A stretch of 64,000 nucleotides of DNA from a virus. Position numbers and translations under genes: made by a program. The stretch spans positions 44,854 through 108,853 of IMG/VR virus record IMGVR_UViG_3300029267_002377; one strand, given 5' to 3'. Position 1 is the first letter of the stretch; every line of letters begins with the position of its first letter. Below are positions 9,611 to 27,813 of this stretch, piece after piece. The notes beneath the pieces are model-generated. The model saw only the letters and a program-made list of their open reading frames with translations, ran no database searches and was not told the origin of the DNA.

Positions 9611-9801
9611 ATAGGCAACTGGTTATTGTCGAGGGACCCGACCGGGGAGATGTGATTAGTGACTTTTTAGGTATTATAAATCCCCTCCTTCAAGACAACT
9701 GGTGGATCGTTGGGGGGACATTGATCGAGTTTGTAGCGCCGCGGAAGGGCGGTTACAGGTACGCCTGGACAGTAGAGCTGGAGCAAGAGGTTGTTACCTA
9801 A
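9607..9801 (+). CDS. hypothetical protein
   Basis: ATGA overlap with the upstream gene. Confidence 0.55.
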   Translation: MNRQLVIVEGPDRGDVISDFLGIINPLLQDNWWIVGGTLIEFVAPRKGGYRYAWTVELEQEVVT

Positions 9802-10750
9802 TCAGATAGTTGGTGAGATTGAAAACGAACTCAACCTAGAGAAGTGGTTCCAAAAGGGTGGACCCGGCTCTGGTCACTGGGGTCATAGGGGTCGGAAGGG
9901 GAAACGAGGGGGTAGTGCTCCTTCTAGAGGGTTGGCTAAGTTGTCTGCTCCAGTTGGGAACGCTGGTGTTGAGGGTAATAGGGGAGTTGACAAGTTGCTC
10001 ACTGACACCTTATTTCCTGGGGAGGAGGTAGTTACCAAACCAAAACCAGGGGATTGGGAATACGCTACTACCAATGAAAGAGCCAAACTCAAAGCCCAAG
10101 TGGCAAGAGACCTTTCTGAGGTATCTGGGGTTACAGAACAAGAAGCAGCTGACTTTGTGAGGCAGTGGGCGCACTCCTCTAACGACAACGATATGCGCTC
10201 TTTGGCTGTGCAGCAAGATGCGGCGAAGGAGTTTGGCCTTAAGACATCGGAGTTTACTCAAGGTAAGATTGATAACATGAAAGAATACAGACAGAAACAG
10301 CTAAAAAGACTAGAGGAGGGATATACTATAGAGCAACTTGGAGTGCGATGGGCAAGTGTAAATCCTTTGATGGAGAGTGATAAACAGCGAGCCCTCCTGA
10401 GAAGCATGTACAACGAGACACAAGCCGAACTGAAAGCGAGGGGAATTAAGGAGGTTCGGCTGTATAGGGGAGCTAGATTGCCGGATGATGGAAAATGGCC
10501 AGATAGAATCGGTGGTGCTATACCGGTTGAGACAAATGCAGTGGAGAGTTGGTCTGTTAGCGCACGTGTTGCGAGGAATTTTGCTACTCCTCAGAGTGGT
10601 GGTGACATAGGGGTGGTATTTGTAACGGTGGTTCCAGCCAATCGCATTCTGTCAACTCCTGCAACTGGTTTTGGCTGTCTAAGAGAGGGAGAGGTTGTTG
10701 TCTTGGGGGGAATTGATGGAGATAATGCTAGAGTGGCGGGGATAAGATGA
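9791..10750 (+). CDS. GGPGSG-tagged effector 1: R-S-E ADP-ribosyltransferase-like
   Basis: Tag starts at 9857; VRLYRG, VESWS, REGEVVV triad motifs. Confidence 0.75.
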   Translation: MLPNQIVGEIENELNLEKWFQKGGPGSGHWGHRGRKGKRGGSAPSRGLAKLSAPVGNAGVEGNRGVDKLLTDTLFPGEEVVTKPKPGDWEYATTNERAKLKAQVARDLSEVSGVTEQEAADFVRQWAHSSNDNDMRSLAVQQDAAKEFGLKTSEFTQGKIDNMKEYRQKQLKRLEEGYTIEQLGVRWASVNPLMESDKQRALLRSMYNETQAELKARGIKEVRLYRGARLPDDGKWPDRIGGAIPVETNAVESWSVSARVARNFATPQSGGDIGVVFVTVVPANRILSTPATGFGCLREGEVVVLGGIDGDNARVAGIR

Positions 10751-10866
10751 AGGTTATTAAGATAAGTGATACAGATGAGAATGCTGATTGGATCAAAGTT
10801 TTATCTGACGATGTAAAAGTCAGTGAAATGGCCAAGAAGCTCTTAAAAGATTATGTAAAGGAATGA
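10747..10866 (+). CDS. 39-aa protein coupled to effector 1; candidate immunity protein
   Basis: ATGA overlap; MKVIKISDTDENADWIKVLSDD... Confidence 0.5.
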   Translation: MKVIKISDTDENADWIKVLSDDVKVSEMAKKLLKDYVKE

Positions 10867-10876
10867 AAACCTTTTT

Positions 10877-11044
10877 ATGAATAAGGATTATGCAGCGCAG
10901 CTTCTAATTAGCGCATCTCAAGTGGAGGAAGATCCAGAACTCCAACTGGCGATGTTAATGGGAGCGCGGGAACTAACTCAAGACGAGCTTAAATGGATTC
11001 CTGTTGACTTGAGGAAATGGTTTTATCCAGAGTTGGGAGTTTAG
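10877..11044 (+). CDS. small hypothetical protein (55 aa)
   Basis: Read manually: MNKDYAAQLL..WFYPELGV. Confidence 0.5.
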   Translation: MNKDYAAQLLISASQVEEDPELQLAMLMGARELTQDELKWIPVDLRKWFYPELGV

Positions 11045-11045
11045 A

Positions 11046-14131: not shown

Positions 14132-14383
14132 AGACATACACTGTCATCGGCTCAACTGACAATTACGAAATAAAAGCGTCTAACGAGAAGGAAGCTTGGA
14201 GACAAGCTATAGTTAAGAACTTAAAGCCACCTTTCATTAGAGAGAAGAAGTGATCTACTACAAGTGTAAGAAATGCAAAGGCTGGTTTACCAAGCCATAC
14301 GGGTGGTTTACTAGAGTCGCTAAACCTAAAGTCTGGACGACCGTCATTGAATTTACTTGCCCATCTTGTGTAAAGGAGAAAAA

Positions 14384-15316
14384 ATGAACGAAGTAAGATC
14401 TATCAAGTCCGCATACGCTAGCCACTTACTAGCCAAAAAGAACGTCGTGGCTGTAGGAGTTGGCTACAAGAGAGTCGGAGGAGAGCGGACCGACGACCTA
14501 GCTGTCATCGTCTCCGTAGTCCAGAAACAAACAAACCCCGTAGAACCTGTCCCCAAGTACCTCAATGGAATCAAAACAGACGTCCAGGAAGTTGGTGTCT
14601 TGAGAGCGATGCGAACGAGCAAGCACCGCCCCGCTCCTGGTGGAGTGTCTATTGGTCACGTCGACATCACGGCTGGAACACTTGGTTGCCTCACCTCCGA
14701 AGGGTATATTTTGAGCAACAACCACGTCTTGGCCAACTCGAACGCGGGAGAACCAGGAGACTACATCGTCCAGCCCGGTCCCCACGACGGCGGAACGGTT
14801 GATGACCTCATCGCTACGCTTTACCGGTTTGTTCCGGTTGAGTTCAGTTGTCCCATTTTGGATGGAATCATCGGTGCCGGGAACTTGATTGCCCGAGCCA
14901 TGAAGTCTCGCTACCGCCTCCGAGGAGTCAACAACTCGGAGAACCTCGTAGACGCCGCCCTAGCCACTCCACTGTCATCTGACCTCGTCACCCCCGAGAT
15001 CCTCGAAATCGGCGAACCCGCTGGAGTAGCCGAAGCCGAACTCGGCATGAGTATTCAGAAGAGTGGCCGCACAACTGGCCTTACCCACGGAACTATCGAG
15101 CAAATTGACGTGACGGCCAACGTTTTGTACGGCTATCAAATGGCCACTTTCACCGATCAAGTTATGGCTGGCTACATGTGCGAGGGCGGAGACAGCGGTT
15201 CGGCTGTTCTAACCGGCGACCGCGAAGTGGTTGGTTTGTTGTTTGCTGGATCTGAGTCGACTACCCTATTCAACCGGATCGCCAACGTCACGGACCTGTT
15301 AGGAGTCACCATTTGA
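14384..15316 (+). CDS. trypsin-like (S1) serine protease with prodomain
   Basis: Catalytic triad SNNHVL, VDAALA, GGDSGS; KSGRTTGLT. Confidence 0.9.
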   Translation: MNEVRSIKSAYASHLLAKKNVVAVGVGYKRVGGERTDDLAVIVSVVQKQTNPVEPVPKYLNGIKTDVQEVGVLRAMRTSKHRPAPGGVSIGHVDITAGTLGCLTSEGYILSNNHVLANSNAGEPGDYIVQPGPHDGGTVDDLIATLYRFVPVEFSCPILDGIIGAGNLIARAMKSRYRLRGVNNSENLVDAALATPLSSDLVTPEILEIGEPAGVAEAELGMSIQKSGRTTGLTHGTIEQIDVTANVLYGYQMATFTDQVMAGYMCEGGDSGSAVLTGDREVVGLLFAGSESTTLFNRIANVTDLLGVTI

Positions 15317-16068
15317 CAGACATTGCTATCCAGATCATAGACAACTACATAGAACTCGGTGGCCCCGGATCTGGGAATTGGGGACACGCAGGCAGAAAAG
15401 GAAAAAGAGGTGGGTCCCTCCCGCGCTCTAGAGCTATGTCTAGACGAACAGGCAAGGACTGGAGAAAGCGTCAAGCAGCAGCTAAGAGGATTGCTGCCAA
15501 GGGTCACACTCCCCCAACGGATTCGGCTATGCATGAAGACCGTTTGCACTCCTCTTTAACTGAAAAAGACAAAGGAGTGATAAGGCGTGCTGTAGCCAAT
15601 CTCCCCCAGGAGCACCTAGACAAGGTCTATGGGATTGAGAAACGCCATATCCCTGGAGCAGAGGGACGGTGCAGAGGGAACTACATCGAGCTAAATAGTG
15701 AGACTTATGGAGCTCATAATAGGCGGATTTGGCATAAGGCCACTGTGGTGCATGAGATTGGTCACGTGGTTCAAAATCATAACTCACAGTATGGAGACCG
15801 GCGTTACGTTGAAGATTTTGGAAAGTTCTATAGGGAGAAGAAAGGTCGAGTCGGAATACACCCCAGTGCACTACGGGCGGAAGCGACAAAGGCAGGAGGT
15901 CCGAGGAAGGGATTTCCTTCCCGATACTCTCAGAAAGATCACAAGGAGTTATTTGCCGAAAGCTACCAAATGTATACAAGCGCCCCGAAGACCTTACAGA
16001 AGCGAGCTCCGGAGATTTATGAGTACATGCGAGATGACGTGTTTGGTGGGGTGGAGTACATAAAATGA
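15313..16068 (+). CDS. GGPGSG-tagged effector 2: lethal-factor-like zincin metallopeptidase
   Basis: Tag starts at 15358; HEIGH, YSQKDHKELFAESY, APEIYEYM. Confidence 0.75.
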   Translation: MTDIAIQIIDNYIELGGPGSGNWGHAGRKGKRGGSLPRSRAMSRRTGKDWRKRQAAAKRIAAKGHTPPTDSAMHEDRLHSSLTEKDKGVIRRAVANLPQEHLDKVYGIEKRHIPGAEGRCRGNYIELNSETYGAHNRRIWHKATVVHEIGHVVQNHNSQYGDRRYVEDFGKFYREKKGRVGIHPSALRAEATKAGGPRKGFPSRYSQKDHKELFAESYQMYTSAPKTLQKRAPEIYEYMRDDVFGGVEYIK

Positions 16069-16325
16069 ATATCCTTAGCGGTGTAACAGGTAAGCAGGTT
16101 GGGACTATGGATCGGCTGGGTCGAGTTACTACTTCAGATCGAGGACTCAAAGGTATTATGGCTGCAGTTAATAAAGATCGGTCTGTGGTTATACCCAGCC
16201 GCTCAGACGTCGTAGGTGAGGATAAAATAATAGATTTCGTGGAGATAGTATCAGATACAGATCCGGATTTTGTCAACGCGCTCATTATCTATCTCCTCCG
16301 AGAAGGCTATGAGGTTGTAGTATGA
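16065..16325 (+). CDS. small protein coupled to effector 2; candidate inhibitor/immunity protein
   Basis: ATGA overlap; 86 aa. Confidence 0.55.
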   Translation: MNILSGVTGKQVGTMDRLGRVTTSDRGLKGIMAAVNKDRSVVIPSRSDVVGEDKIIDFVEIVSDTDPDFVNALIIYLLREGYEVVV

Positions 16326-16992: not shown

Positions 16993-16995
16993 GAT

Positions 16996-17160
16996 ATGGA
17001 TAAAGTAAAAATATACAATAAGTTGGGCCAACTCGTCGGGTGGTACATCAACGGGGTGGTGCAAGTCTACTCCCCCGACCTCCAGAAGGCGAAAAAGGGA
17101 TGTCCAGAAGGCGCAGACCTTGTAGAATTTCTGAAGAGTCGGGGGTTTCGTTTTGAGTAG
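16996..17160 (+). CDS. 54-aa protein, duplicated copy A
   Basis: MDKVKIYNKLGQLVGW..EFLKSRGFRFE; near-identical to 18733-18888. Confidence 0.7.
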   Translation: MDKVKIYNKLGQLVGWYINGVVQVYSPDLQKAKKGCPEGADLVEFLKSRGFRFE

Positions 17161-18505
17161 AGACCTCTTTGCCGAAGTAGGCGCCATACTAACTGAGATG
17201 GGCGGCCCCGGTTCTGGCCACCATGGTCACAAAGGCCGCAAAGGTAAGCGCGGTGGATCGGCCCCTTCTAAAGCTGGTGGGATTTCTAGCCCTCAACCGG
17301 TAGGTGGTGCTTGGTCTTCTTGGCACGCATTCGAGGTGGATGTTATTCAGGGGAATATAGACCCTGATTTCTCGATACAGGCTGAGGTGGATAACACTTT
17401 GTACGAGGTTAAGCTTGAAAGCTGGTGGGAAGGATGCATGGAGTCTCGAGGGTTGGGTAAAACTTCTTGGGGATCTATAGATAGGAGGTTTGAGGAGTTA
17501 ATGGCAGCGGAAGCTGGTTGGGATAGGGTTGATATATCGGGTTTTATAGATAATACCCACATAGCTCCATATGGTGCCACATACATCGGAAGAAAAGTCC
17601 TGCGGGTAAAAAGCGACTTTATCATTTCTCAAGTCGAATCCCAACTCGTTCTCAGCCCCGAAGGTGGATGGGTAGAGAAAGGCGGACCAGGAAGTGGCCA
17701 TTGGGGTCACGCTGGTCGAAAAGGAAAGAGGGGAGGGAGTTTGCCGGGGGCAGTCGGCGTTCTTGGCGCTGCGGTTGTAAGCCAGTTGGAGAAGGATGGT
17801 TACGATCCGGGTATACTGGTGTCTATAGGTCGAGATGCCCGCGACCGGGGTTTTACCTCCCTTCTGGGGGATCTGCATGATGAGGTACCCGAGAATGAGT
17901 ACATGAAGTATGCAGATGCCTACGCAGAAGCAAGGTTATTCACCAGCGGGGGATTTAGTGGTCAAAGCGACCCAGGATTTAGGCATGTGTCTCTCAAACG
18001 TTTCGAGAGGGACTTAGCAAATCCAGAGCGTCGGTGGATACCAAAGCAATTGGCAGCAGCAGCTATAATCAAAAGTATGGTAGAGCAAGATTTAAGAAGT
18101 ACTCCTCGTTTATACCGCGGTTCAGATTGGGAGGGCTCTCTATCTGTGGGAGACAAGGTAGATTTTGGGACCTTGGGGCGTGAGTTTTCGAGCCTTAGTC
18201 CCGCTGGTGGGGCTTTTGGGGCTCGTAAATATACGTTTATTTTGGATAACCCACAGAGAGGAGCAAACCTTAAGAATTTTTCTAATCACCCCGAGGAGAA
18301 ACCTTGGTTGATAAAAGGAAACTATAAGGTATCTTCTATCAAAGGTAAAAATATTACTATAGTACCGGGTGGGGTATCTAAGAGTGATTTTATCATTTCT
18401 CAAATCGAATCCCAACTCGTTCTCAGTCCCGAAGGTGGGTGGGTGGAAGACGTGCTTGTTTCCGAACAACGGGTGGCAACATCTCTATCGAGCTTATTTG
18501 AGTGA
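17153..18505 (+). CDS. GGPGSG-tagged polyprotein: tag + unknown domain + tag + ART-like domain
   Basis: Tags start at 17201 and 17681; RLYRG, FSSLS; repeated linker KSDFIISQxESQLVLSPEGGWVE. Confidence 0.7.
   Translation: MSRDLFAEVGAILTEMGGPGSGHHGHKGRKGKRGGSAPSKAGGISSPQPVGGAWSSWHAFEVDVIQGNIDPDFSIQAEVDNTLYEVKLESWWEGCMESRGLGKTSWGSIDRRFEELMAAEAGWDRVDISGFIDNTHIAPYGATYIGRKVLRVKSDFIISQVESQLVLSPEGGWVEKGGPGSGHWGHAGRKGKRGGSLPGAVGVLGAAVVSQLEKDGYDPGILVSIGRDARDRGFTSLLGDLHDEVPENEYMKYADAYAEARLFTSGGFSGQSDPGFRHVSLKRFERDLANPERRWIPKQLAAAAIIKSMVEQDLRSTPRLYRGSDWEGSLSVGDKVDFGTLGREFSSLSPAGGAFGARKYTFILDNPQRGANLKNFSNHPEEKPWLIKGNYKVSSIKGKNITIVPGGVSKSDFIISQIESQLVLSPEGGWVEDVLVSEQRVATSLSSLFE
17611..18447 (+). repeat. 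~66-bp direct repeat (17611-17676 and 18382-18447) encoding the linker
   Basis: tttatcatttctcaa(g/a)tcgaatcccaactcgttctcag(c/t)cccgaaggtgg in both copies. Confidence 0.85.
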
Positions 18506-18720
18506 GGGAGACTTGTATTATGCTTACTAGTGAACTAATCGATCATCTAGAAGAGATTCGAAAGCAGCATGGAGACTTACCTATCTATATATTTACTGAT
18601 GGGACGGGCCCATCAACTTGCATGGATCTCGAGCGAGTAGATGTAGGTGAGGCTTGGTTCGCGAACAGTCCCGAGACGGTACGAAGTGCAGTGATTCTAA
18701 GTTTGTATGGAGTGGATTAG
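18502..18720 (+). CDS. hypothetical protein, paralog of 34207-34431
   Basis: TSELIDHLEEIRKQHGDL vs TSELIYQLEEIRSIHGDL. Confidence 0.65.
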   Translation: MRETCIMLTSELIDHLEEIRKQHGDLPIYIFTDGTGPSTCMDLERVDVGEAWFANSPETVRSAVILSLYGVD

Positions 18721-18888: not shown

Positions 18889-20650
18889 GGCTCCCGACTG
18901 GCTAGATTCTCTCCCACCAAACTGGGAGGAAAAATACGACCGAAGACTTGTCGCAATGATTAGGGAACGGATGAACCGGGACAAATCCTTGGCCGTTCCT
19001 AAGAAGTATGCGAAGTACGTCGAGAGCATCCAAGAGTACGCCCGGGAAGTTCTCAAAGTTGAGTGGTGGGACAAACAAGTGGCGGTTGCTTTGTCATTCC
19101 AGATGAACAAATATACAATCGTCCCAGCATCGTTCGGTGTGGGCAAAACGTTCATTGTGGGTGGGCTTATCAACTGGTGGTTCGATGTTTTTGATCCTTC
19201 GATTGCACTGACAACCGCTCCCACCTGGCCCCAAGTCGAGAAGCTTCTGTGGGGCGAAATCCGAGATCAGCGCCCAGAGGGATCTGTCGGAAAAACTTAC
19301 TCTACGGAAATTAAGCACTCTGCTAAACACTACGCCCTAGGATTGTCAACCGACCGAGAGAACCGGTTTCAGGGGTTCCATGAGGAGAGGATATGTGTGG
19401 CACTCGACGAAGGTCCTGGTATCCGAGCGCCGATTTGGGACGCCGCAGTTGACAACATCCCAGTTGGACCTGATAACCGAGTTATTGCTATTGGAAACCC
19501 CCTAGAGAGATCTGGACCATTTTACGACGCTGCGAACGATCCTACCTGGCATTGTATACACATTGGTGCACTCGATCACCCCAATATACTGGCAGAACTA
19601 CAAGGAGAGGATCCTCCCTTCCCAAAAGCTGTCCGGTTGGAGTGGGTGCAAGAACGAATAAGGAAGTGGTGTGCGAGAGTCTTTGACCCGCTACCAGAGC
19701 AAAAGGTAGAACTTTTTCAATTTCCTCCGGACTCGGACCAGTGGTGGAAGCCCAATCCCCTCGCAGAGTCCAAGGTCTTAGGCTGGTTCCCAAGCGAGGG
19801 GGAAGATCAAATCATTCCCATGTCTGCCGTGGACGCCGCAGTCAAACGAGTTGAGAAACCAGGCCAGCCTGTTCGGTTCGGAATAGATGTTGCCTTCGGT
19901 GGGGGAGATGAGTCAGTGATTGCTGGGATTTTCGGACACCACGCCGAAATACTATGGACTTTTGAGGGAGCAGATGTGATGACTGTGGCTGGCCAGGCGG
20001 TTCGTCTGATTAGAAAACATCACCCTCAGGAGGTTCGGGTAGATATTATTGGAGTAGGGTCTGGTGTACACGACAGGCTGAAGGAACTTAGTGAGCTTGG
20101 AGATCTTCCGGAAGGAGTCAAGATTCTCGAAGTCCATGTCCAGAAACCACCTATCAATGAGAAAGACTACACGGAGGAGTTTTGGTCTTTGAGAGATCAG
20201 CTCTGGTGGATGATGCGTTTGGGTATTACGGAAATGGACTTGCCAGATGATGAAGTTTTGCAGTCACAGATGATTGCACCAAGGTGGGGGGTGACTTCCC
20301 GGGGTAAAATTATTGTCGAGCAGAAGGACAAGATGAAGGACCGGGGAACTAAGTCGCCAGACCGAGCAGAGGCGGTCATGTTAGCCTGGCCCGATGTGGG
20401 ATTTTTCGATGGGAAGCGGTGGAGAAAATTAAAATTCTTAAGCCCGGGCATGATTGTTTCTGCTGACCGAGGAGACAGGTTTGAGCTGCGGTATTTACTT
20501 CAGCCACCCTTTACAGTTCGAGGCCCAGCTTCTGGGAGAACTTATCACATTTTAGATAAAAAGCCATTCCCAGTGAACGAGGAAGATTTTCAACCCATGA
20601 AGGAGATGCGTTATCATACAGTTGACGGCTTCTACCCAATGTTCCGCTGA
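18881..20650 (+). CDS. terL: terminase large subunit
   Basis: ASFGVGKT Walker A, ALDEG Walker B, IGNP, nuclease motifs GIDVA..DES and SPDRAEA. Confidence 0.92.
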   Translation: MTRAPDWLDSLPPNWEEKYDRRLVAMIRERMNRDKSLAVPKKYAKYVESIQEYAREVLKVEWWDKQVAVALSFQMNKYTIVPASFGVGKTFIVGGLINWWFDVFDPSIALTTAPTWPQVEKLLWGEIRDQRPEGSVGKTYSTEIKHSAKHYALGLSTDRENRFQGFHEERICVALDEGPGIRAPIWDAAVDNIPVGPDNRVIAIGNPLERSGPFYDAANDPTWHCIHIGALDHPNILAELQGEDPPFPKAVRLEWVQERIRKWCARVFDPLPEQKVELFQFPPDSDQWWKPNPLAESKVLGWFPSEGEDQIIPMSAVDAAVKRVEKPGQPVRFGIDVAFGGGDESVIAGIFGHHAEILWTFEGADVMTVAGQAVRLIRKHHPQEVRVDIIGVGSGVHDRLKELSELGDLPEGVKILEVHVQKPPINEKDYTEEFWSLRDQLWWMMRLGITEMDLPDDEVLQSQMIAPRWGVTSRGKIIVEQKDKMKDRGTKSPDRAEAVMLAWPDVGFFDGKRWRKLKFLSPGMIVSADRGDRFELRYLLQPPFTVRGPASGRTYHILDKKPFPVNEEDFQPMKEMRYHTVDGFYPMFR

Positions 20651-21749
20651 TATTATCAATTTAATAGACGAGTCCCTTGGTGAGTACAAGGAGATGGGTG
20701 GGCCCGGTTCTGGACACTGGGGCCACAAAGGGCGGAAAGGGAGGCGCGGTGGTTCCGCTCCCAGCAAGGCTGGAACTGTGGCCAAATCCCCATATTTGAA
20801 TTCTGTGCTCGAGGGGAGGGTCGACACGTATGTCCCACCCAGCAGCCGAACGGATCCTATTGCCAATGAGATTATCAAAGAGCAGGGGTTCGATGGCAAA
20901 CCGGATGTGGTGACTGCTTCTGAGCTAAATGAGTTTGTGAATTCTGGGGAGAGGGAGCTTTACCGTGGAGTATCTAGGGGGGAGTATGCCGAGGAGTTGA
21001 TGTATGGAGATTCGTTTGAGACGGGGACCGGTATGCATGGCGCAGGGTTATATACAGTTTACGGCGAGAATGCAGATAGTACTGCAATGTACTTTGGAGC
21101 TAAGCAAGGAGAAAACGCAACTATAATTCGGATGTCTCTGAAAAAAGATGCTAACGTTATAAGTGAGTCTGCGCTTAAGGAGGAGATGGAAGGATGGCTA
21201 GCAAGCCGGGAGAGCGTAAAAGTAGATCCTGATACTCTGAGGACCCAAGCCTTTGCTGCTGCGAATCGTGGCGATAATAAGACTGCGAATAATCTTATGC
21301 AGGCCTCTTACATAGCAGAACAGCATGGAGATGTCGTAGGACACATAGCGACAGGAGATCGGGGGCGGTTTGCTGCTGCTAGCGGTTATGATGCAATAGA
21401 TGTATCGGAGCAGGGCTACATGGTGGTTTTAAATAGATCTGCACTGCGAATAGCAGAGAACCCAATGAGTGCAACAGCACCTAAACGAGGTTCCATAAAG
21501 TCTCCTCGAGTACTGCCGTCGCAACAGGTGGATGTGAGCAAAATTGTCCCAAGTGCTGTTTTGCCGAAGCATCGAGTTAGCTGGCTGAGAAATCAAATAG
21601 AGAGTAAGCGTCAGCAGGCAATCGCAGCGGCAGAGAAGGTAGCAACATCCAAATCGCCGGGGACAGTTAAGAAATGGCATACGCGGAGGAAATACTTAGA
21701 GCAGGATATGCACCATCTTATTGCTGTTCTGGAGGGACGCGTTGAGTAG
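20622..21749 (+). CDS. GGPGSG-tagged effector: PARP-like/ART-fold domain
   Basis: Tag starts at 20697; ELYRGV, GTGMHGAGLY, GYDAI, VVLNR. Confidence 0.65.
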   Translation: MTASTQCSADIINLIDESLGEYKEMGGPGSGHWGHKGRKGRRGGSAPSKAGTVAKSPYLNSVLEGRVDTYVPPSSRTDPIANEIIKEQGFDGKPDVVTASELNEFVNSGERELYRGVSRGEYAEELMYGDSFETGTGMHGAGLYTVYGENADSTAMYFGAKQGENATIIRMSLKKDANVISESALKEEMEGWLASRESVKVDPDTLRTQAFAAANRGDNKTANNLMQASYIAEQHGDVVGHIATGDRGRFAAASGYDAIDVSEQGYMVVLNRSALRIAENPMSATAPKRGSIKSPRVLPSQQVDVSKIVPSAVLPKHRVSWLRNQIESKRQQAIAAAEKVATSKSPGTVKKWHTRRKYLEQDMHHLIAVLEGRVE

Positions 21750-21800: not shown

Positions 21801-22694
21801 ATGGCAAAAGATATGGGCGTGGAAGGAATAGATTACATAGTTTGTAGGGTATGCGGTGCCAAGGCAAGGCGTTTAGATAACCGCCATCTACCGTTTAAGC
21901 ATGGGATATCTTCGGTAGAGTATCTGGAGAGGTTTCCTGAAGCACCGCTAATGTGCAGTGAGACGAGGAGGAAATATTCCAAGACCACTAAGGAGGCGTG
22001 GAGTCGGGGAGACCACAGTAGTGGTGAAACAACTCGGAAAAAATCTAGAGCAGCAACTGCAGCGTGGAAGGATCCTGATAGACATCATGAGATGTCGGGT
22101 AAGATAAAGGAATCTTGGGATAGGGGCGATCACGAGGGAGCATGGACGGAGGAACTCCGAGTACGGCAATCTAGGAAGATAAGGCAGTGGTGTGAGAATA
22201 ACCCGGATGAGGTACAGGCTAATATGCGGAGAGCCCGAGAGGCTAAAGTTCTACTTGGAAACCGGGCGGTGTATACCGACGAAGTCCGTGCAAGGATGTC
22301 TGAGAGCGTAAAAGAGGCTTGGCGGAGAGGCGACTACGATGGAGTTTTTGACTCCCCTACTTCTATAGAGATTGATGTATCTCGGGCTCTGGATGAGAAG
22401 GGGATTAGGCACATATCTCAGTATAGGCCGAAGGGGTATTATAGGATCTACGATGAGTTCGTGCCTCCCAGGACACTAATTGAGGTTCAAGGGTCCTACT
22501 GGCATACTCTCCCTGACATGCAGGAGCGAGATATAGAAAAGGCTAGGTGGGCGCATCAGAATGGATACTTTGTGGTTGCAATCTGGGATTTTCAACTGGA
22601 GGAGTACGGAGCAGATTTTTTAGTTGAGAATTGGATTCTGCCGCTAAGTTCTACCAAGGGTGTGGGGGCTCCTCATATGGAGAGGTTATTCTAA
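21801..22694 (+). CDS. free-standing endonuclease (zinc finger + NUMOD3-like repeats + Vsr/DUF559 nuclease)
   Basis: CRVC..HLPFKH; repeated MS..KEAW.RGD; YDEF..IEVQGSYWH..RD..IWD. Confidence 0.75.
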   Translation: MAKDMGVEGIDYIVCRVCGAKARRLDNRHLPFKHGISSVEYLERFPEAPLMCSETRRKYSKTTKEAWSRGDHSSGETTRKKSRAATAAWKDPDRHHEMSGKIKESWDRGDHEGAWTEELRVRQSRKIRQWCENNPDEVQANMRRAREAKVLLGNRAVYTDEVRARMSESVKEAWRRGDYDGVFDSPTSIEIDVSRALDEKGIRHISQYRPKGYYRIYDEFVPPRTLIEVQGSYWHTLPDMQERDIEKARWAHQNGYFVVAIWDFQLEEYGADFLVENWILPLSSTKGVGAPHMERLF

Positions 22695-24160
22695 TGGCAG
22701 CAGAACCGAAGAGAAGATCAGTAGCATATCTGGATGTAAACACAAGACCATTTTTACAGCCGTCTCGTGTGCCTTCTATGTTCTCAAGCACGCAGTGGCG
22801 GTATCTGGCATCAGAGCCTGTAAACCTTTCGTACCAGACACATCTTGTGAGATCCTTGAAACTTGAGTATAAGTTTACTCCAAAGAAGGGGGTGGACCCA
22901 AAGAGCGATGAAGTATTAGAGATAACTGAGTATTATGAGGAACTTTTCGAGCATGTTAGGTTCGATCTCCTAAAGGTTATGTGGGAGAAAGATAGCTACG
23001 ATCTACCTTTTGGGGGTTCTTTAGAGATTATGTGGTGGCCAGATGGTGCGTTTGGTGGGAAGTTCCCTGCTGGTTACCCTGCTGGAATAGTGCACGTGGA
23101 TGCTGGTACGATGTATATCAATCAAGGCAACCCAAACTATCCATACGTCCAGATGGATCCGAATGACAATCAGCGGCCAATCGCGTTTAAACGTCGAGAA
23201 ATTGCTCGACTTATGTACCTTCCGCAGACGAGCATAAAGCTCTTTGGGTATCAAAAAAGCCCTGTAGAACAAAATTATCAAGTGATAGAAGCGTTGGCAA
23301 GGCTTTATACTTATGATTTGAAAAGTTTATCGGATACCCCCATTGCAGGAATCTTGGATTTAATGGATTTCTCGGAAGCGGACGTGACAGAGTGGAAAAA
23401 AGGTTTCGAAGAAATGATGATGGGTGTGAATCCCATTAAGATTCCTTTGCTGTATGAACACGAGACTCCTGCCAAATTTGTTCCTTTTGGTCAACCTGAG
23501 CTGAATGTTAGCGAAAAATGGAAGCATTACGCGGAGAAATGTGGAACACCATATGGTTTGACCATAGGTAGCCTTGGCCTGGCGGAGCACGATAGGACGC
23601 TTGCTGGAGCTCGTGTACAGAGGTTAACTACCCAACGCACTGGCGTGGGTGGGTTCGCCTACGACGAGAAGCGGGCGATCAACCGGCAGTTCTTCCCGCC
23701 AGATTGCCCAATCATGTTCGATTGGGACGTTCCTGAGATTGAGGACGTAGTCAAACGGCGCCAGGCTGAGGGTTTGCGAATTGCTTACCTGGGTCAGATG
23801 GTAGGAGCTGGGGCACTGGCAGCAGAGGATATGCTAGAGCAGGCAGTTGAAGACGGAATATTTTCAATCCCTGTTAAACCGGGAGCAATACAAGAAGGAA
23901 TCCAGGGTCTGCCCAAACCTCCTGCCCAAAAGGAAGTTCCACCTAAGGCTCAAAAACCAAAAGGAGAATATCCTGAGTATCCTCCCGCAGTGAAAGCTGC
24001 CCATATAGTCGAGGAAACCCTCCTGTTGAAGCAAGACGTAGGAGATGACCTTGAACAAACCAAAGCTTTTAAAATGATGCAAGATGTCCTAGCGGATCAG
24101 TTGTATGGAAAGGCAGTAAAGGGAAGCATCGAGAACATTTTCAATCAGCTAAAGGAGTAG
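22694..24160 (+). CDS. portal protein
   Basis: Position after TerL, size, HVDAGT..YVQ, FGYQKSPVE patterns. Confidence 0.7.
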   Translation: MAAEPKRRSVAYLDVNTRPFLQPSRVPSMFSSTQWRYLASEPVNLSYQTHLVRSLKLEYKFTPKKGVDPKSDEVLEITEYYEELFEHVRFDLLKVMWEKDSYDLPFGGSLEIMWWPDGAFGGKFPAGYPAGIVHVDAGTMYINQGNPNYPYVQMDPNDNQRPIAFKRREIARLMYLPQTSIKLFGYQKSPVEQNYQVIEALARLYTYDLKSLSDTPIAGILDLMDFSEADVTEWKKGFEEMMMGVNPIKIPLLYEHETPAKFVPFGQPELNVSEKWKHYAEKCGTPYGLTIGSLGLAEHDRTLAGARVQRLTTQRTGVGGFAYDEKRAINRQFFPPDCPIMFDWDVPEIEDVVKRRQAEGLRIAYLGQMVGAGALAAEDMLEQAVEDGIFSIPVKPGAIQEGIQGLPKPPAQKEVPPKAQKPKGEYPEYPPAVKAAHIVEETLLLKQDVGDDLEQTKAFKMMQDVLADQLYGKAVKGSIENIFNQLKE

Positions 24161-24163
24161 TTT

Positions 24164-25561
24164 TTGGCCAATAAGCGCTGGACCCAAGACGAGACAAATC
24201 TACTAATCTCTATGGGAGACAACATCGAAGCATCTGGGCAGTCCTGGAGAGAAGTGGGGGAGATGTTTGGTGTCTCTGAGAGCTCTGCTCGGCAGAAGTA
24301 TATTCGAGAGAGAGAAAAAAGAGGCAGGAAAGATCGGCAAACTGTCAAAAGAGATGAACGGGTTAACACTATGGTTGTTGAGGCACAGTTTGCTGGAATC
24401 AAAACTCTCGATGAGATGCTTGAAGTTTGCCAGGTAGATTTAAATGTCTGGAAGGTTGACCGGTACCTTGTAAACAAGTGGCCCGTTGGTGCTAAGGCAG
24501 CCAAAAAGGATCTTACTTGGGATGAGGGGCGTCTAACTGGTTCTGTATACGAGGACGGACTTGTTATTGCTCCCCTGTTCCAAGTCAAAGTTTGGTTATC
24601 ACGTATTGAGCCGGAACCGATCTTCCCAGTCCTCCAGCCGGTTGAGTGCAAGATTTTCAAACTTCCACAGGCATATAAGGCACGAAAAGGGGAACTGCGC
24701 AGAACGCTTATATTTTCAGATCCCCATTTTGGATTTATTCGTGATATTACAACAGGTGAGCTTACTCCTCTCCATAACCGTGCAGTTCTAGATGTTATCC
24801 TCCAAGTAGCTCAAATAGCTGAAGTGGACCGTGTGGATGTTTTGGGGGATATGTTAGATTTGGCTGAGTGGTCTACAAAATATACAAAATCTCCAGAGTT
24901 CTGCGAAACGACTCAGCCTTCTGTACTGGAAGCTCACTGGTGGTTGTCTCAATTTCGGCAATGTTGTGAGGAGATGACTGTTTACGAAGGGAACCACGGT
25001 AAAAGGTTGCAAGATGCCATTGTCACTCACTTGAGAGCCGCTTATGACCTCCGGCCCGCCGATGAGATGGAGATGCCACCAGCTATGAGTGTGCCCCGTC
25101 TACTAGGGTTGGACAGTTTAGAGATAGAATGGGTTGGAGATTACCCGAGTGGGGAGGTATGGTTAAATGAGTTTTTACGCTTGACCCACGGCGAGATAGC
25201 GAGAATTCCCGGAAATACTGCCAAAGCAGTTATTGAGAGTGGAGACACGAATGAGATTTTCGGCCACACTCACAAGGTGGAGTGGGGAAGCAGAACGATA
25301 CACCGCGCTAAGGAGATAAAGCAGGTTGTTGGGTTCTCACCTGGGTGTGCCTGCTGGATAGATGGCCGGGTACCTGGGTTTAGTTCAGGTCCACAGTGGC
25401 AGAATGGGTGCGCTATAGTTGATTATGAAGTCGGGGGAGAATTATTCTGGGTTTCCCCTGTTCTGATTTGTGAGGATAGGGCGATTTTCAATAAAGAACT
25501 AATTGTGGCAAGGGATCAGGTAAGTAATTTGGGGAGTAGTTATCCTGATTGGAAATGGTAA
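24164..25561 (+). CDS. HTH + calcineurin-like metallophosphoesterase
   Basis: SDPHFG, GDMLD, EGNH, THG, GHTH. Confidence 0.85.
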   Translation: MANKRWTQDETNLLISMGDNIEASGQSWREVGEMFGVSESSARQKYIREREKRGRKDRQTVKRDERVNTMVVEAQFAGIKTLDEMLEVCQVDLNVWKVDRYLVNKWPVGAKAAKKDLTWDEGRLTGSVYEDGLVIAPLFQVKVWLSRIEPEPIFPVLQPVECKIFKLPQAYKARKGELRRTLIFSDPHFGFIRDITTGELTPLHNRAVLDVILQVAQIAEVDRVDVLGDMLDLAEWSTKYTKSPEFCETTQPSVLEAHWWLSQFRQCCEEMTVYEGNHGKRLQDAIVTHLRAAYDLRPADEMEMPPAMSVPRLLGLDSLEIEWVGDYPSGEVWLNEFLRLTHGEIARIPGNTAKAVIESGDTNEIFGHTHKVEWGSRTIHRAKEIKQVVGFSPGCACWIDGRVPGFSSGPQWQNGCAIVDYEVGGELFWVSPVLICEDRAIFNKELIVARDQVSNLGSSYPDWKW

Positions 25562-26409
25562 TGGCTGACTTGTCTGCAGGTATTGTCAATCTAATAGAAT
25601 CTTCTCTTGGTGATTTTCGGGCGATGGGAGGCCCTGGCTCAGGTCATTGGGGACATCGAGGACGAAAGGGCAAAAGAGGTGGGTCGGCTCCCTCTAGAGC
25701 TGGAAGACTTACGCCGTTGGCGGATCTGGTTTCTCCTACCGGTTTTACGGATATTGGTGGAATGATAGGTCGTTTAGGAGAGGAAGGCACAAAGGAGGAG
25801 ATCACAGGAAGACTGTTCGCCGAGATTGGTTATAATTCACTGCCGAGTGTGGTAACGGAGAAGGAGCTAGACAGCGTTATCGGTTCTGGTGGACTGGAGA
25901 TGTTTAGGGCGGAGGGAGGAGCCCGAGCGGCAGAGTACGCCGAACAGTTTAGGTCAGGTAGATTGCATACTGGGAGTGGATTTTATGCCAGCGGGGTTCA
26001 TGCTGCACATGGTAGGGATGCCGAAAGCCATGCTAAACATTTTGCGAAAAGCGAGGGCGGAGTTGTCACTAGGATGGCTCTTAGTAAAGGGGCTAAAGTT
26101 GTTACAGAGGCAGAAGTTCATAGATTACACGACCAGTTTAGCAAGTTGAGAGATACCGAACTTAATAAGTTATCTGTTCGTCTTGCTAAGGACCCAACAA
26201 ACAAGGATTTGGTAAGGGATATAACAGAATATTCTCGGATTTCAAATGATGTAGCGGAGTTTGCGCGACACGATATGGCTCGGCTCCCGGCGTTGTTGGG
26301 TTATGATGCTATTCAAGGTTTAGATGGGCAAGGGTTGCCTGAGACGATTATATTGAACAGGGGCAAGGTATATGTATCTGATACAAGTACAACGGTGCCG
26401 CGAGAGTAG
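25549..26409 (+). CDS. GGPGSG-tagged effector, paralog of 20622-21749
   Basis: Tag starts at 25627; PSVVTEKELD, GSGFYASGVH, RMALSKGAKV, GYDAI, IILNR. Confidence 0.7.
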   Translation: MEMVMADLSAGIVNLIESSLGDFRAMGGPGSGHWGHRGRKGKRGGSAPSRAGRLTPLADLVSPTGFTDIGGMIGRLGEEGTKEEITGRLFAEIGYNSLPSVVTEKELDSVIGSGGLEMFRAEGGARAAEYAEQFRSGRLHTGSGFYASGVHAAHGRDAESHAKHFAKSEGGVVTRMALSKGAKVVTEAEVHRLHDQFSKLRDTELNKLSVRLAKDPTNKDLVRDITEYSRISNDVAEFARHDMARLPALLGYDAIQGLDGQGLPETIILNRGKVYVSDTSTTVPRE

Positions 26410-26421
26410 GAGACTTTTTGA

Positions 26422-27024
26422 GTGGCTGACGAAGAACTGTGGGACCGAATAGATGAGATCCTAGACGACTCAGAAGAGTTTTGGTCAATAGACGTTTCTG
26501 ACGAACTCATTGCAGCGTTAACTCTGGCTTACTTAGACGGGCTAGAAGGGGCAGCAGAGTACATCGGAGAGCTGGCTGGGGTAGCAATTGAGTTGGCTTT
26601 TGACCTGGTAGATCCTGTTGCTCTGGAATTTATTCAAGACAGAGCAGCAGAGATGGTTCGAAACGTCAACAGAGGAACCAAACACTACCTCCGCACTATG
26701 ATCTACAACGGTCTCCAAGAAGGGATCCCCGAACAAGACCTGATAGACGGAATTTTTAAAAATTTATTCGAGCAGAGCGAGTTTAGTGAGCAAAGGATCC
26801 GCTCGATCACTCGGTTTGAAATTGCTCGTGCCCAGTCTTCTGCTTGGGAAAAGCAGATGGACGAAGTCGGCCTTGAAACAAAGCGATGGGTGACCATTGG
26901 AGCGGACGCATGTGAGGTCTGTAAGGCTAATGAGGCGATGGGTCCCCAGCCGGTTAACTCGAAGACCTTTGATAACGTTTTTGGAGAAAAGTGTGGTGGG
27001 CCGCCAGCTCACCCGAACGTCTGA
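26422..27024 (+). CDS. MuF / SPP1 gp7-like head morphogenesis domain (extends to 27813 if the UGA is recoded)
   Basis: RIRSITRFEIARA, KRWVT, CEVC, PPAHPNV-UGA-RC. Confidence 0.85.
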   Translation: MADEELWDRIDEILDDSEEFWSIDVSDELIAALTLAYLDGLEGAAEYIGELAGVAIELAFDLVDPVALEFIQDRAAEMVRNVNRGTKHYLRTMIYNGLQEGIPEQDLIDGIFKNLFEQSEFSEQRIRSITRFEIARAQSSAWEKQMDEVGLETKRWVTIGADACEVCKANEAMGPQPVNSKTFDNVFGEKCGGPPAHPNV

Positions 27025-27033
27025 AGGTGCCAC

Positions 27034-27813
27034 TTGGCAGCGACTCCGTCGGAGATCGCAGGGTTAGGAAAAGAGATTGAATTCTACGTAGGCAAGTCAG
27101 AGGTTGAGAAAGGCGGGCCTGGAAGTGGTCATTGGGGTCACAAAGGGCGCAAGGGCAGGAGAGGGGGAAGTGCTCCCAGTAAGGCGCCCGCTGTTGTGGG
27201 AAAGGTTAGTACTGTTGATTGGACTGATGACAACTATAGGAGTAAGTTTGAGGAGGCTACTGGTGGGCACCGTGTGGGTTCGCGTGTTACAAAGAACCAA
27301 GCTACTGAGATAGCATACAGTCTGCAAGGGATGCCTCAACCCGATACTGAGGTTACTTTTATCACAACAAAAACCCAAGAAGAATTCGATCGCGTATATG
27401 GAGGTTCGGCTAGGGGTTGCGCTGGATTTTACAGGGTGTACACAGATGAAATTGTTTTTGGGCCGCAAACATCTGCTAACCTAGACACACCTCAGGGGTT
27501 TGCCAGTTATGGCACAGTTTGGCATGAGTGGGGACATGCGCTGGATTACACACTGAGTGAAACGAAGGGAGTGGCTAAGTCATCCAAGGTGATTCGGGCA
27601 AAAGATAATCCGTACGACCGAGCCTGGCTTTTTGATCGGTTTCCTACGAACTATGCAAAGAAAACAGAGCGGGAATTCTTTGCAGAGAGTATAGAATGTG
27701 TGAAAAGGTACTCGAATAAAAGGGAAGTGGGTTTCTATAAGCATTATTTTCCGGAATCACATGAGATGGTGGGAGCTGTCCTTGGTGATAGAATGCCGGA
27801 GGAGTGGAAGTGA
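27034..27813 (+). CDS. GGPGSG-tagged effector: zincin metallopeptidase, in frame with MuF
   Basis: KSEVEK then tag at 27112; HEWGH, NYAKKTEREFFAES. Confidence 0.75.
   Translation: MAATPSEIAGLGKEIEFYVGKSEVEKGGPGSGHWGHKGRKGRRGGSAPSKAPAVVGKVSTVDWTDDNYRSKFEEATGGHRVGSRVTKNQATEIAYSLQGMPQPDTEVTFITTKTQEEFDRVYGGSARGCAGFYRVYTDEIVFGPQTSANLDTPQGFASYGTVWHEWGHALDYTLSETKGVAKSSKVIRAKDNPYDRAWLFDRFPTNYAKKTEREFFAESIECVKRYSNKREVGFYKHYFPESHEMVGAVLGDRMPEEWK
27040..27059 (+). promoter_or_regulatory. bacterial SECIS-like hairpin
   Basis: GCGACUCC-GUC-GGAG(A)UCGC; loop begins GU, 23 nt after the UGA at 27022. Confidence 0.5.

Follow-up and report, generated by a model that had tools for sequence, protein, structure and literature searches.

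A recurrent Gly-rich header on head-module effector genes of a phage, a candidate loading and processing signal

What function is served by a 23-residue peptide that recurs ahead of different enzyme-like domains in the head module of a virus? The window, a 64,000-nt stretch of IMG/VR record IMGVR_UViG_3300029267_002377 (positions 44,854 to 108,853), carries the tag GGPGSG[HN][WH]GHxGRKG[KR]RGGS[AL]P at sites that start, in a six-frame scan, exactly at 9857, 15358, 17201, 17681, 20697, 25627 and 27112. All seven copies lie on the + strand and are spread over six genes between the terminase small subunit (TerS) gene and the prohead protease-scaffold gene.

The tag array and the head genes around it

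The tag-bearing genes and the head genes among which they lie are as follows (window coordinates).

8969-9610, + strand: terminase small subunit, upstream limit of the array (phrog_2538, E 1.8e-11)
9791-10750, + strand: tagged gene 1; leader 9791-9856, tag 9857-9925, R-S-ExE ADP-ribosyltransferase (ART)-like cargo
14357-15316, + strand: trypsin-like serine protease, untagged (phrog_20754 protease, E 3e-61; Pfam Trypsin_2, E 1e-7)
15313-16068, + strand: tagged gene 2; leader 15313-15357, tag 15358-15426, HExxH zincin of lethal-factor (ATLF) type
17153-18505, + strand: tagged gene 3; unit 1 with leader 17153-17200, tag 17201-17269 and an unassigned domain
17609-17749, + strand: gene 3, start of unit 2; leader 17609-17680, tag 17681-17749, then a YRG...SSLS...EE cargo, by guess a candidate ART
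18881-20650, + strand: terminase large subunit (TerL; phrog_2, E 6.9e-27)
20622-21749, + strand: tagged gene 4; leader 20622-20696, tag 20697-20765, ART-PolyVal/PARP-like candidate
22631-24160, + strand: portal protein, of a type fused to MuF in relatives L014 and L015
25549-26409, + strand: tagged gene 5; leader 25549-25626, tag 25627-25695, cargo paralogous to that of gene 4
26422-27024, + strand: MuF-like head protein (PHROGs head morphogenesis/portal families, E 4e-13)
27034-27813, + strand: tagged gene 6; leader 27034-27111, tag 27112-27180, HExxH zincin (HEWGH ... FAES)
28227-30368, + strand: prohead protease-scaffold; residues 1-200 of assemblin/S78-S77 type, then an acidic scaffold-like region and a zinc ribbon
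30406-31767, + strand: major capsid protein; N-terminal propeptide of about 87 residues, 41-44% identity to the capsid genes of L015 and L023

The six-frame scan of the 64,000 nt returned no further copy in the window. An eighth copy lies outside it in the same genome (G000:C1:6211), within an ATG-started gene (L001:6157-6645) that sits in the neck module, flanked by a head-tail adaptor gene and a Neck1-type gene. The alignment of the eight copies contains 17 invariant columns; over the 23 codons, the copies are on average 88% identical in protein and 67% in DNA. In pairs of copies, 69% of the codons for the same residue differ, and serine alternates between TCN and AGY. Judged from this alignment, the eightfold recurrence cannot be chance, because a 23-residue peptide occurs eight times with saturated synonymous sites; by the same codon comparison, selection on the tag is at the protein level and strongly purifying. 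Each of the eight proteins has a leader of 15-26 residues ahead of the tag, and the leaders are weakly alike (E from 1e-9 to 0.06). The seven sites and their six genes, the divergence of codons under a kept peptide and the short leaders had all been described in the initial annotation and are confirmed here; its statement that the tag occurs nowhere else holds for the window and fails for the genome.

Within the head genes, an alignment of 389 residues (30% identity, E 6e-43) pairs the portal with the N-terminal half of L015:2894-5359; the match of the portal to PHROGs portal families is weak. The MuF-like protein has homologues in L014 and L015, where it corresponds to the MuF half of portal-MuF fusions, and it stops at a TGA where relatives have the first Cys of an HPNVCHC motif; gene 6 starts nine bases past this TGA in the same frame. 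The array had been proposed to work without MuF, a proposal contradicted by this MuF gene directly before gene 6. The prohead protease has Peptidase_S78, S78_2 and S77 as its Atlas feature and structure neighbours, with H62, S126 and H157 invariant with L015 and L023. A candidate maturation site of the capsid protein, MVEK↓TQTDPNILPQPY (the arrow marks the bond), is located at about 30655-30666. The trypsin-like protease at 14357-15316 is a rival candidate for cleavage after K/R; no homologue of it was found in related loci.

Cargos of the tagged genes

The cargos were initially read as R-S-E ART-like (gene 1), HExxH metallopeptidase (gene 2) and PARP-like (genes 4 and 5); the first two assignments stand, and the third is kept as a candidate. 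In gene 1, the motifs YRG (R226), SWS (S253) and EGE (E299, E301) follow in order and are invariant in 27 homologues. The AF2 model has pLDDT <50 for residues 1-42, corresponding to leader and tag, and >90 beyond about residue 50. Its 29 best structural matches are all ARTs (C2-I, iota Ia, CDTa, VIP2, C3, Vis), each of them weak (Z 5-6.2, rmsd about 4.6 Å over about 160 residues; Foldseek E >=8.6e-3). The leader and tag are predicted to be disordered, and the cargo, modelled with confidence, is predicted to adopt an ADP-ribosyltransferase-like fold. Among the 31 homologues found for this cargo, one carries Pfam DRAT and one is fused directly to MuF without a tag. The same ART is known in three settings: behind a leader and tag, inside polyproteins, and in a tagless MuF fusion.

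Gene 2 scores above the Pfam ATLF cut-off (E=1.1e-6, 29 bits vs 27.4) and carries HEIGH followed further downstream by FAES, which would supply the Glu ligand; its start codon, TTG, overlaps the stop codon (TGA) of the trypsin-like protease gene. Gene 6 aligns with gene 2 through HExxH and FAES. Genes 4 and 5 are paralogues (33% identity), and a word search returned no homologue of gene 5 besides gene 4. The nearest Atlas cluster of gene 4 (score 0.94, 188 shared features) has ART-PolyVal on 22% of its members, and among the structural neighbours are MuF-fused capsid proteins (TM 0.64) and PARP (TM 0.45). The start of gene 4 overlaps the end of TerL by 29 nt. The public gene call places this start at the Met directly before GG, which, if right, would leave gene 4 without a leader, yet the leader is conserved with that of gene 5.

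In gene 3, for which no homologues were found, the single-sequence AF2 model is unusable (pLDDT 32). A further copy of its second leader, this one lacking a tag, lies at 18380-18447 (repeat D4, 90% over 68 nt), and the whole gene is flanked by a 165-nt repeat. Small ORFs lie 3' of several cargos, for example at 16065-16325, 18502-18720 and 27804-28055.

Spread of the tag and the residue before it

At E<=1e-3, a profile built from the eight tags matches 2,854 representative proteins. The best matches are proteins of 1,000-3,000 residues with 4-10 tags, 150-300 residues apart, one before each domain. Most often the tag lies between one domain and the next in polyproteins that carry a fusion to portal, MuF or protease; portal fusions are many, and a portal-NUDIX or portal-2H arrangement followed by the tag is present on at least seven viral contigs. 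In 60 multi-tag proteins the cargos include ADPrib_exo_Tox (12), ART-PolyVal (4), ART (3) and zeta toxin (2), together with S78_2, NUDIX, 2H, ATLF and MuF. Neighbouring genes encode terminases, portals and capsid proteins of several families; the portals are of four or more types (Portal_T4, Portal_Mu, Phage_portal_3 and that of the window), the capsid proteins of three or more families (Gp23, Phage_capsid, Phage_capsid_4). Of 166 tag-bearing proteins, 101 have their first tag no more than 45 residues from the called N-terminus, with a median leader of 21 residues. Twenty header residues are nearly invariant even where hosts and head types differ greatly between phages; the window variant (GRKGKRGG) is basic, unlike the general consensus (GRPGEVGGS). 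No cultured phage with the tag was found, nor any published description of it. By profile similarity, the header is common to thousands of uncultured phages. The proposed tie to head modules and variable enzymatic cargo thus extends to more than 2,800 other representative proteins, and the tag is not special to free-standing effectors, as had been supposed, its commonest setting being the fused polyproteins.

These polyproteins belong to the polyvalent proteins (Iyer et al. 2017, PMC5512222), with which they share a repertoire of ART-PolyVal, ADPrib_exo_Tox, zincin, NUDIX and 2H domains, as well as zeta toxin, ParB and GNAT domains, together with portal or MuF fusions and a location among head genes. 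The window genes display effector domains of the same kind: an ATLF-type zincin, an ART-like domain and an ART-PolyVal candidate. Polyvalent proteins are defined by 2-15 unrelated domains, a description that suits the tag-bearing relatives with 4-10 units; in the window, five of the six genes have one cargo and the sixth has two. On these domain assignments, the window is best read as a polyvalent-protein system unbundled into single-cargo genes. In the main text of PMC5512222, no mention was found of a header that recurs or of a protease site ahead of the header. MuF polymorphic toxins (Jamet et al. 2017, PMC5576092) likewise link a head protein to variable C-terminal toxins, and one cargo family of the window is also MuF-fused (P0177); they differ in that none of the six tagged ORFs contains a MuF domain, gene 6 following MuF across a TGA. 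No mention of a linker, conserved motif or cleavage was found in the main text of PMC5576092.

The residue directly before GG was compared across 117 non-redundant phages or proteins, each with at least four tags. Its entropy is 2.49 bits overall and 0.20 bits within a phage, tighter within a phage than at every variable position inside the tag, and it is uniform over all tags in 93 of the 117 groups (79%). The classes are K (47), R (24), L (20), D (11) and E (7). In the seven E groups, L, I, V, M or F stands two residues earlier in 33 of 33 tags, L or I in 27, so that this site, (L/I)-x-E↓GG, matches in sequence the cleavage rule of phage T4 gp21. E-class L002 and L034 encode Portal_T4, Peptidase_S77 and Gp23. 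In E-class L018 and L074 no recognisable protease was found and the capsid family differs; the link between class and protease therefore stands on one T4-type lineage and one three-phage comparison. In the latter, the aligned capsid site reads IAR↓QNDP in L015 and VGR↓ATDP in L023, and R also precedes all tags of these two phages. In the window the pre-GG residue is mixed (K3, M3, L1, R1); VEK stands before two tags, at four places in the scaffold (as VEK↓A) and once at the boundary between capsid propeptide and core. This comparative evidence marks the bond directly before the tag as a putative protease site. As a candidate for the loading signal, the leader is therefore no weaker than the tag, and the stand-alone packaging signal of the initial annotation is not supported in the form given.

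A candidate processing mechanism and its alternatives

The distribution of the tag, its disorder, its place before domains, its head-module context and the phage-specific pre-GG residue are established computationally. The reading we prefer, at a probability of roughly 0.55, is that leader, cut site and header form a loading and processing signal resembling the T4 capsid-targeting sequence (CTS), with cutting by the prohead protease and ejection of the cargo. Cleavage before GG, head loading and ejection are steps that we infer. The precursor would consist of the leader (15-26 residues here, 5-45 elsewhere), a scissile X↓GG, the disordered header GG(P)GSG(N/H)(F/W/H)GHxGR(P/K)GxxGGS, a Gly/Ser/Pro-rich linker and the enzyme. 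The leader would take the precursor into the assembling prohead, a role taken over in polyproteins by the portal, MuF or protease to which they are fused. A cut directly before GG would follow, made by the prohead protease that the phage itself encodes (in the window, the N-terminal domain of 28227-30368). Each enzyme would thereby be released with a new N-terminus formed by the header, and the ADP-ribosyltransferase-like, zincin-like and other enzymes would remain in the head and reach the host along with the DNA.

In T4, a short N-terminal propeptide is likewise shared by unrelated proteins (IPI-III and Alt; Mullaney & Black 1996, PMC9026906), an ADP-ribosyltransferase among them, which are loaded into the head and injected after gp21 removes the propeptide at its consensus. 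A 10-residue CTS is reported to be enough for loading, and gp21 to cleave after Glu (PMC9026906); the CTS ends in FIAE (10.1101/2021.01.19.427310), and the leaders of T4-type tag-bearing phages end in (L/I)-x-E, with an S77 protease present. T4 differs in having no conserved header after the cut, whereas the 20-residue header of the tag system is common to phages with unrelated head proteins and recurs within polyproteins. In the giant phages phiKZ, 201phi2-1 and SPN3US, too, propeptides are present on many head and ejection proteins, and gp21-like proteases that cleave after Glu remove them at a short motif specific to the phage (PMC9026906, PMC7411985); a common header is undescribed there, and the tag system adds K, R, L and D classes to E.

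A protease site normally needs fewer than 20 invariant residues. As a cleavage site alone does not account for them, the header must have a role beyond the cutting model; our guess is a protease-docking or an exit/threading element. It is possible, though doubtful, that the header is a universal portable head-cargo element, for which each phage adapts only the preceding residue to its own protease, and which has a second common job after the cut. Such a Gly-Gly-started header may, for example, engage the exit channel and let the enzyme accompany the DNA out of the capsid. If so, the same header would serve thousands of phages whose portals, capsid proteins and proteases are unrelated, and one peptide would be a general handle to load and deliver proteins using many different phages.

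Alternatively, the tag itself could be the packaging or ejection signal, each cargo loading independently by binding a conserved partner inside the capsid (scaffold, capsid protein, portal or DNA), with the leader incidental and cutting unneeded. The tag is the sole element common to all cargos while leaders vary, and it is retained on eight free-standing genes under strong purifying selection, where a mere domain separator should vanish after gene fission; the MuF fusion that substitutes for leader and tag on the same ART and the basic window variant also fit. This version is nevertheless unlikely, as the tag recurs before every polyprotein domain despite tethering to portal, MuF or protease, its general consensus is not basic, and the phage-specific pre-GG residue is left unexplained. 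The diversity of portal types and capsid families occurring with the tag therefore makes a fast-evolving structural partner improbable. Somewhat less likely still is a header that works at exit or after injection, as an element threading portal and tail or as a target, inside the host cell, of a host factor or of co-delivered zincin peptidases, which Iyer et al. favour as processing enzymes of polyvalent proteins (PMC5512222). Near-invariance across hosts and head types is consistent with a universal partner or a physical constraint. The header is disordered in the AF2 model, two window cargos are zincins, and MPTase-mediated processing is proposed in PMC5512222; zincin domains were, however, rarely detected in the 60 multi-tag proteins (ATLF 1, DUF6782 1), and this candidate role is compatible with the CTS-like reading rather than exclusive of it.

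The CTS-like reading, with its external protease, also compares with two explanations to which we give very little weight. The smallest share goes to a motif that self-cleaves by an N-O acyl shift at G↓S or skips a peptide bond in translation like 2A peptides. A short invariant Gly/Pro-rich motif with conserved H, R and S between polyprotein domains would suit such chemistry, but the folded context is absent in the AF2 model and the phage-specific pre-GG residue suggests an external enzyme with a specificity pocket; we know of no bacterial precedent for 2A-type skipping. Hardly better placed is a flexible linker or a conserved joint for recombinational cassette shuffling, comparable to the VENN and PxxxxDPxGL toxin joints. 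Signs of cassette exchange do exist in gene 3, in its leader repeat and the flanking 165-nt repeat, but a linker has no need of invariant H, R and S, and recent repeats are found in leaders and flanks and in none of the tags, which, at 67% DNA identity and with no long identical run, could therefore not drive homologous recombination.

Tagged genes in the head and neck modules

The tag is a Gly-rich peptide of about 20 residues, GGPGSG[HN][WH]GHxGRKG[KR]RGGS[AL]P, that follows a short leader. It starts at 9857, 15358, 17201, 17681, 20697, 25627 and 27112, all on the + strand, and a six-frame scan of the window reveals no copy beyond those seven. The contig totals 108,853 bp, of which the window covers bases 44,854-108,853, and carries an eighth copy at contig base 6211, outside the window; the statement of the initial annotation that the peptide occurs nowhere else thus holds for the window but not for the contig. 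Across the eight copies 17 columns are invariant, and mean identity between copies is 88% for the peptide and 67% for the DNA. Codons for the same residue in two copies differ in 69% of cases, Ser swapping between the TCN and AGY families, and selection on the tag peptide is therefore clear. Scan and codon comparison bear out the seven sites and their differing codons as first annotated.

Tagged genes and their neighbours (window coordinates unless marked)
8969-9610, + strand, TerS
9791-10750, + strand, tagged gene 1
14357-15316, + strand, trypsin-like protease, its stop overlapping the start of tagged gene 2
15313-16068, + strand, tagged gene 2
17153-18505, + strand, tagged gene 3 (two copies)
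18881-20650, + strand, TerL
20622-21749, + strand, tagged gene 4
22631-24160, + strand, portal
24164-25561, + strand, metallophosphoesterase
25549-26409, + strand, tagged gene 5
26422-27024, + strand, MuF-like gene
27034-27813, + strand, tagged gene 6
28227-30368, + strand, 713-residue protease-scaffold protein
30406-31767, + strand, major capsid protein
L001:6157-6645 (the source contig), eighth tagged gene, 162-residue ORF starting with ATG, cargo small and very basic

With a head-tail adaptor gene on one side and one of Neck1 type on the other, the eighth tagged gene belongs to the neck rather than the head module. Its small, very basic cargo has no family match and recalls the basic internal proteins of T4. 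All six tagged genes of the window (9791, 15313, 17153, 20622, 25549 and 27034) have TTG as their earliest in-frame start, with a Shine-Dalgarno-like GGAG or GGGGG seven bases 5' of the TTG in three of the six. Public gene calls differ: the product of 25549 begins four codons later, and that of 20622 at the Met right before GG. Such weak starts would fit a low-copy cargo. An alternative genetic code is rejected, as ORFs are long under table 11 and stops are mixed (TGA 63, TAG 45 and TAA 36 in + strand frames of at least 60 codons).

The nearest neighbours of residues 1-200 of the 713-residue protein, by features and by structure, are Peptidase_S78, S78_2 and S77 clusters, and H62, S126 and H157 are invariant between this protease part and two relatives. 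Beyond residue 200 comes an acidic, scaffold-like stretch that includes a zinc ribbon. The ribbon (CxxC...CxxC, window 29170-29265, residues 316-346) is 65-80% identical to short ORFs of two unrelated viral contigs (L020, L021), and a ribbon of the same type immediately precedes a tag in two other loci, L066 and L076.

The MuF-like gene ends at a TGA (27022-27024) that reads HPNV-TGA-RCH, and its frame continues into the leader, tag and zincin of 27034. In the closest related contigs, L014 and L015, portal and MuF form one fused protein; at the TGA position these read HPNVCHC and HPRVCHC, respectively, a single base turning the conserved Cys codon into TGA. Read-through, selenocysteine or a recent nonsense change could explain the stop. 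Because the MuF frame runs on into 27034 and the relatives fuse portal and MuF, the earlier proposal of effectors loaded without MuF is inaccurate for this locus. Further upstream, the portal stop TAG is followed at once, in the same frame, by the metallophosphoesterase ORF, whose first start lies one codon on (window 24158-24166), a shared frame that has a chance probability of 1 in 3. Since portals are fused to NUDIX or 2H enzymes in other tag-bearing phages, a portal-metallophosphoesterase fusion made by low-level read-through is conceivable. The ORF that separates tagged gene 4 from the portal (21801-22694), Ros/MucR-like plus HNH/REase-like, is a possible homing-type endonuclease inside the head module.

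The second leader of gene 3 (17609-17676) recurs with 90% identity at 18380-18447, the match ending exactly where a tag would start. A 51-54-codon ORF (MDKVKIYNKLGQL...) and its flank are present twice, at 16995-17160 and 18732-18888, as a direct repeat with 78% identity over 49 nt followed by 96% over 105 nt. The first copy overlaps at its 3' end with the start of tagged gene 3, the second with that of TerL. Direct repeats thus enclose the whole 17153-18720 block immediately 5' of TerL, and this 1.7-kb block looks like an inserted cargo cassette. Leader repeat and flanking repeats suggest that cassettes have been exchanged; no long stretch of identical DNA is shared among the tags.

Cargo domains

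The cargo of 9791 has 31 homologues, one with Pfam DRAT and one fused to MuF without a tag, and their alignment keeps R226, S253 and E299-x-E301 invariant. The AF2 model built with this alignment (mean pLDDT 85, pTM 0.82) places the cargo above pLDDT 90 and residues 1-42 below 50. Its best Foldseek matches and top 29 VIA matches are all ADP-ribosyltransferases, at middling scores (Foldseek E at best 8.6e-3; Z 5-6.2, rmsd about 4.6 Å over about 160 residues), in agreement with the R-S-E ART-like domain first proposed. The metallopeptidase assignment of 15313 is likewise upheld, its product scoring above the Pfam ATLF cut-off. The product of 27034 aligns with that of 15313 through HExxH and FAES, with an E-value inflated by the shared tag.

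The products of 20622 and 25549, first read as PARP-like, are 33% identical, the nearest Atlas cluster of 20622 (score 0.94) has ART-PolyVal on 22% of its members, and the structural neighbours of 20622 include MuF-fused capsid proteins and, at TM 0.45, PARP; the ART-PolyVal/PARP-like assignment is a lead, not a proof. The homologue search returned none for the cargo of 25549 or for the second half of 17153, and AF2 of 17153 from single sequence gives pLDDT 32; neither of the two domains of 17153 receives an assignment.

The tag in other phages

A profile of eight leader-plus-tag segments, searched against 1.84 billion representative proteins, yields 2,854 matches at E<=1e-3 and 568 at E<=1e-10. 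The best-scoring proteins have 1,000-3,000 residues and as many as ten matched stretches each, and in such long proteins a tag stands every 150-300 residues, one ahead of each domain. The general consensus is [KRL]-GG(P)GSG(N/H)(F/H)GH(A)GRPG(E/K)(V/R)GGS(A/L)P, followed by a Gly/Ser-rich run; the GRKGKR form of this phage is a minority variant. All ten matches checked are metagenomic singletons. A scan of IMG/VR gives 75 loci with 276 tags, both in rows of single-cargo genes and in polyproteins. Detailed analysis covers the best 150 of the 2,854 matches and the 75 loci, which were picked with a narrow pattern; this narrow variant is present in assemblies of Oscillospiraceae, Lachnospiraceae and others, those of the two named families including candidate prophage regions.

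In seven of eight large ORFs tested, the order is portal (Phage_portal_3), NUDIX or 2H, tag, then further cargo such as ADPrib_exo_Tox. Pfam assigns, among 60 multi-tag proteins, ADPrib_exo_Tox (12), ART-PolyVal (4), ART (3) and zeta toxin (2), and once each S78_2, NUDIX, 2H, ATLF, glutamine deamidase, MuF, RadC, ParB and GNAT. Untagged neighbours of the tag loci include Terminase_6N/6C, Portal_T4, Portal_Mu, Gp23, Phage_capsid and Phage_capsid_4. The tabulation of downstream domains thus finds tags together with head genes and variable enzymatic cargo, as the initial annotation had anticipated. In the T4-type phage locus L002, the 1,274-residue tagged protein (L002:7703-11524) contains an intein with a DUF559/REase endonuclease, HEAT-like repeats and a DRAT-type ART after the tag.

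The tag-bearing polyproteins belong to the phage-type polyvalent proteins that Iyer et al. described (PMC5512222), and no mention of the repeated peptide was found in the main text there. A literature search for the motif strings brought up no relevant paper, and no Pfam, PHROGs or NCBIfam model covers the tag. Against 50,697 phage records, tblastn with a tag segment and a five-tag protein gives no match, although the low-complexity filter may hide the tag; blastn with 5.3 kb of the window gives no match to phage records. Only one cultured phage, Faecalibacterium phage FP_Brigit, was found to encode a related portal-NUDIX protein, and the 26 kb of it that were scanned lack the tag.

Head cargo with a propeptide and protease site is an established kind of system, as are polyvalent proteins; the header, as the tag is also termed, and the phage-specific cut rule before GG are undescribed as far as the literature search reached. 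The advance lies in breadth and rule-finding, not in a new kind of system, and the window contributes the fully unbundled form, the neck-module copy (on its contig) and a rule, valid across phages, on which residue precedes GG. Phages deliver proteins besides DNA, and we know of no rules for protein loading and release except in T4 and a small number of giant phages. The tag marks cargo in thousands of uncultured phages, and from it a predicted injected arsenal of ARTs, peptidases, nucleotide-signal hydrolases and kinases can be read from sequence.

The residue before GG and the role of the tag

The conserved block starts sharply in every phage. Entropy was compared overall and within phage for 117 non-redundant phages or proteins, each with at least four distinct tags.

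Entropy around the start of the tag (z against shuffled labels)
Residue just before GG: 2.49 bits overall, 0.20 bits within phage, z 52.6
Two before GG: 3.78 bits overall, 1.66 bits within phage, z 16.0
Three before GG: 3.40 bits overall, 1.38 bits within phage, z 21.7
Variable positions inside the tag: 0.2-1.0 bits within phage

The residue preceding GG is uniform across all tags in 93 of the 117 groups and falls into classes K (47), R (24), L (20), D (11), E (7) and a few others; class L is usually R/K-x-L and class D often R/N-x-D. Gene conversion fails to explain this pattern because it should homogenise the tag interior at least as much. In the seven E-class groups (33 tags, e.g. LFE↓GG, LLE↓GG and ILE↓GG), the residue two places earlier is hydrophobic in 33/33 and L or I in 27. 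T4 gp21 cuts after Glu, with residues 8 and 10 of the ten-residue capsid targeting sequence (CTS) governing processing (PMC9026906), and the T4 CTS ends in FIAE (10.1101/2021.01.19.427310); the E-class sites follow the same rule as established for gp21. Two E-class loci, L002 and L034, encode Portal_T4, Peptidase_S77 and Gp23, the S77 protease of L034 lying at L034:16392-17774 and the leaders of that locus ending in LFE↓GG; Pfam detects no protease in two others, L018 and L074. From the phage-specific residue and the gp21 rule in class E, we conclude that the X↓GG junction is probably the cutting site of each phage's own head protease (probability about 0.55), and the residue before GG would then predict the cutting rule of that protease.

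This phage has K, L, M, K, M, M and K ahead of GG in the window and R in the eighth copy, within the triplets VEK, IEL, TEM, VEK, KEM, RAM, FQK and IER, most with E before the final residue. Orthologues of gene 1 on other contigs keep the entire leader (...ELNLE[KR]WF[QAE][KM]); the leader is therefore translated and K/M a true alternation. VEK↓A occurs four times in the scaffold part of the protease protein, and the capsid protein has one V-E-K, at MVEK↓TQTDPNILPQPY, the point from which it resembles other capsid proteins; the genome-wide rate of V-E-K is 0.62 per 1,000 residues. The aligned capsid position reads IAR↓ in relative L015 and VGR↓ in relative L023, and all tags of both are preceded by R. 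This match of capsid-site and pre-tag residues, a small comparison, points the same way as the putative cut site. The [KRML]GG sites in relatives' capsid N-termini were set aside, as they show no co-variation with tag class whereas the VEK/IAR/VGR position does. The capsid segment VREAK-GG was dropped as leader-like since a leader-only HMM missed the capsid N-terminus; the same HMM finds no further leader in the genome. A phmmer search of the loci with S77, S78 and XkdF seeds returns the seeds only, and the predicted complex of protease domain and leader-tag scores 0.40 against 0.34 for the control and is not counted as evidence.

Leader, cut site and header together would form a signal for loading and processing like the CTS of T4. 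Of 166 tag-bearing proteins, 101 have their first tag no more than 45 residues from the N-terminus (median leader 21 residues); proteins without a head-protein fusion thus begin with a leader. In polyproteins cut site and header alone recur, which would fit release of each domain. Eight separate genes keep the unit, and in the homologous protein P0177 a direct MuF fusion stands in its place; both would fit cargo entry into the head. A cut site alone does not account for 20 invariant residues. The header is disordered in the AF2 model of 9791 and accompanies at least four types of portal and at least three capsid families; the partner of the header would therefore be the conserved protease fold, the exit path, DNA or a host factor. 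That the tag itself is the packaging or ejection signal, as first proposed, is rather unlikely, and a header role after injection or during exit is slightly less probable still; these two models and predicted processing at X↓GG by the head protease overlap. Disassembly of polyvalent proteins and capsid addressing of free-standing effectors become testable questions, and the header may serve as a general tag for packaging foreign proteins in phage heads, as the CTS does for T4. In three class D phages (L065, L072 and L039), an extra conserved GGG-x-HNR lies a few residues past the tag and may define a header subtype.
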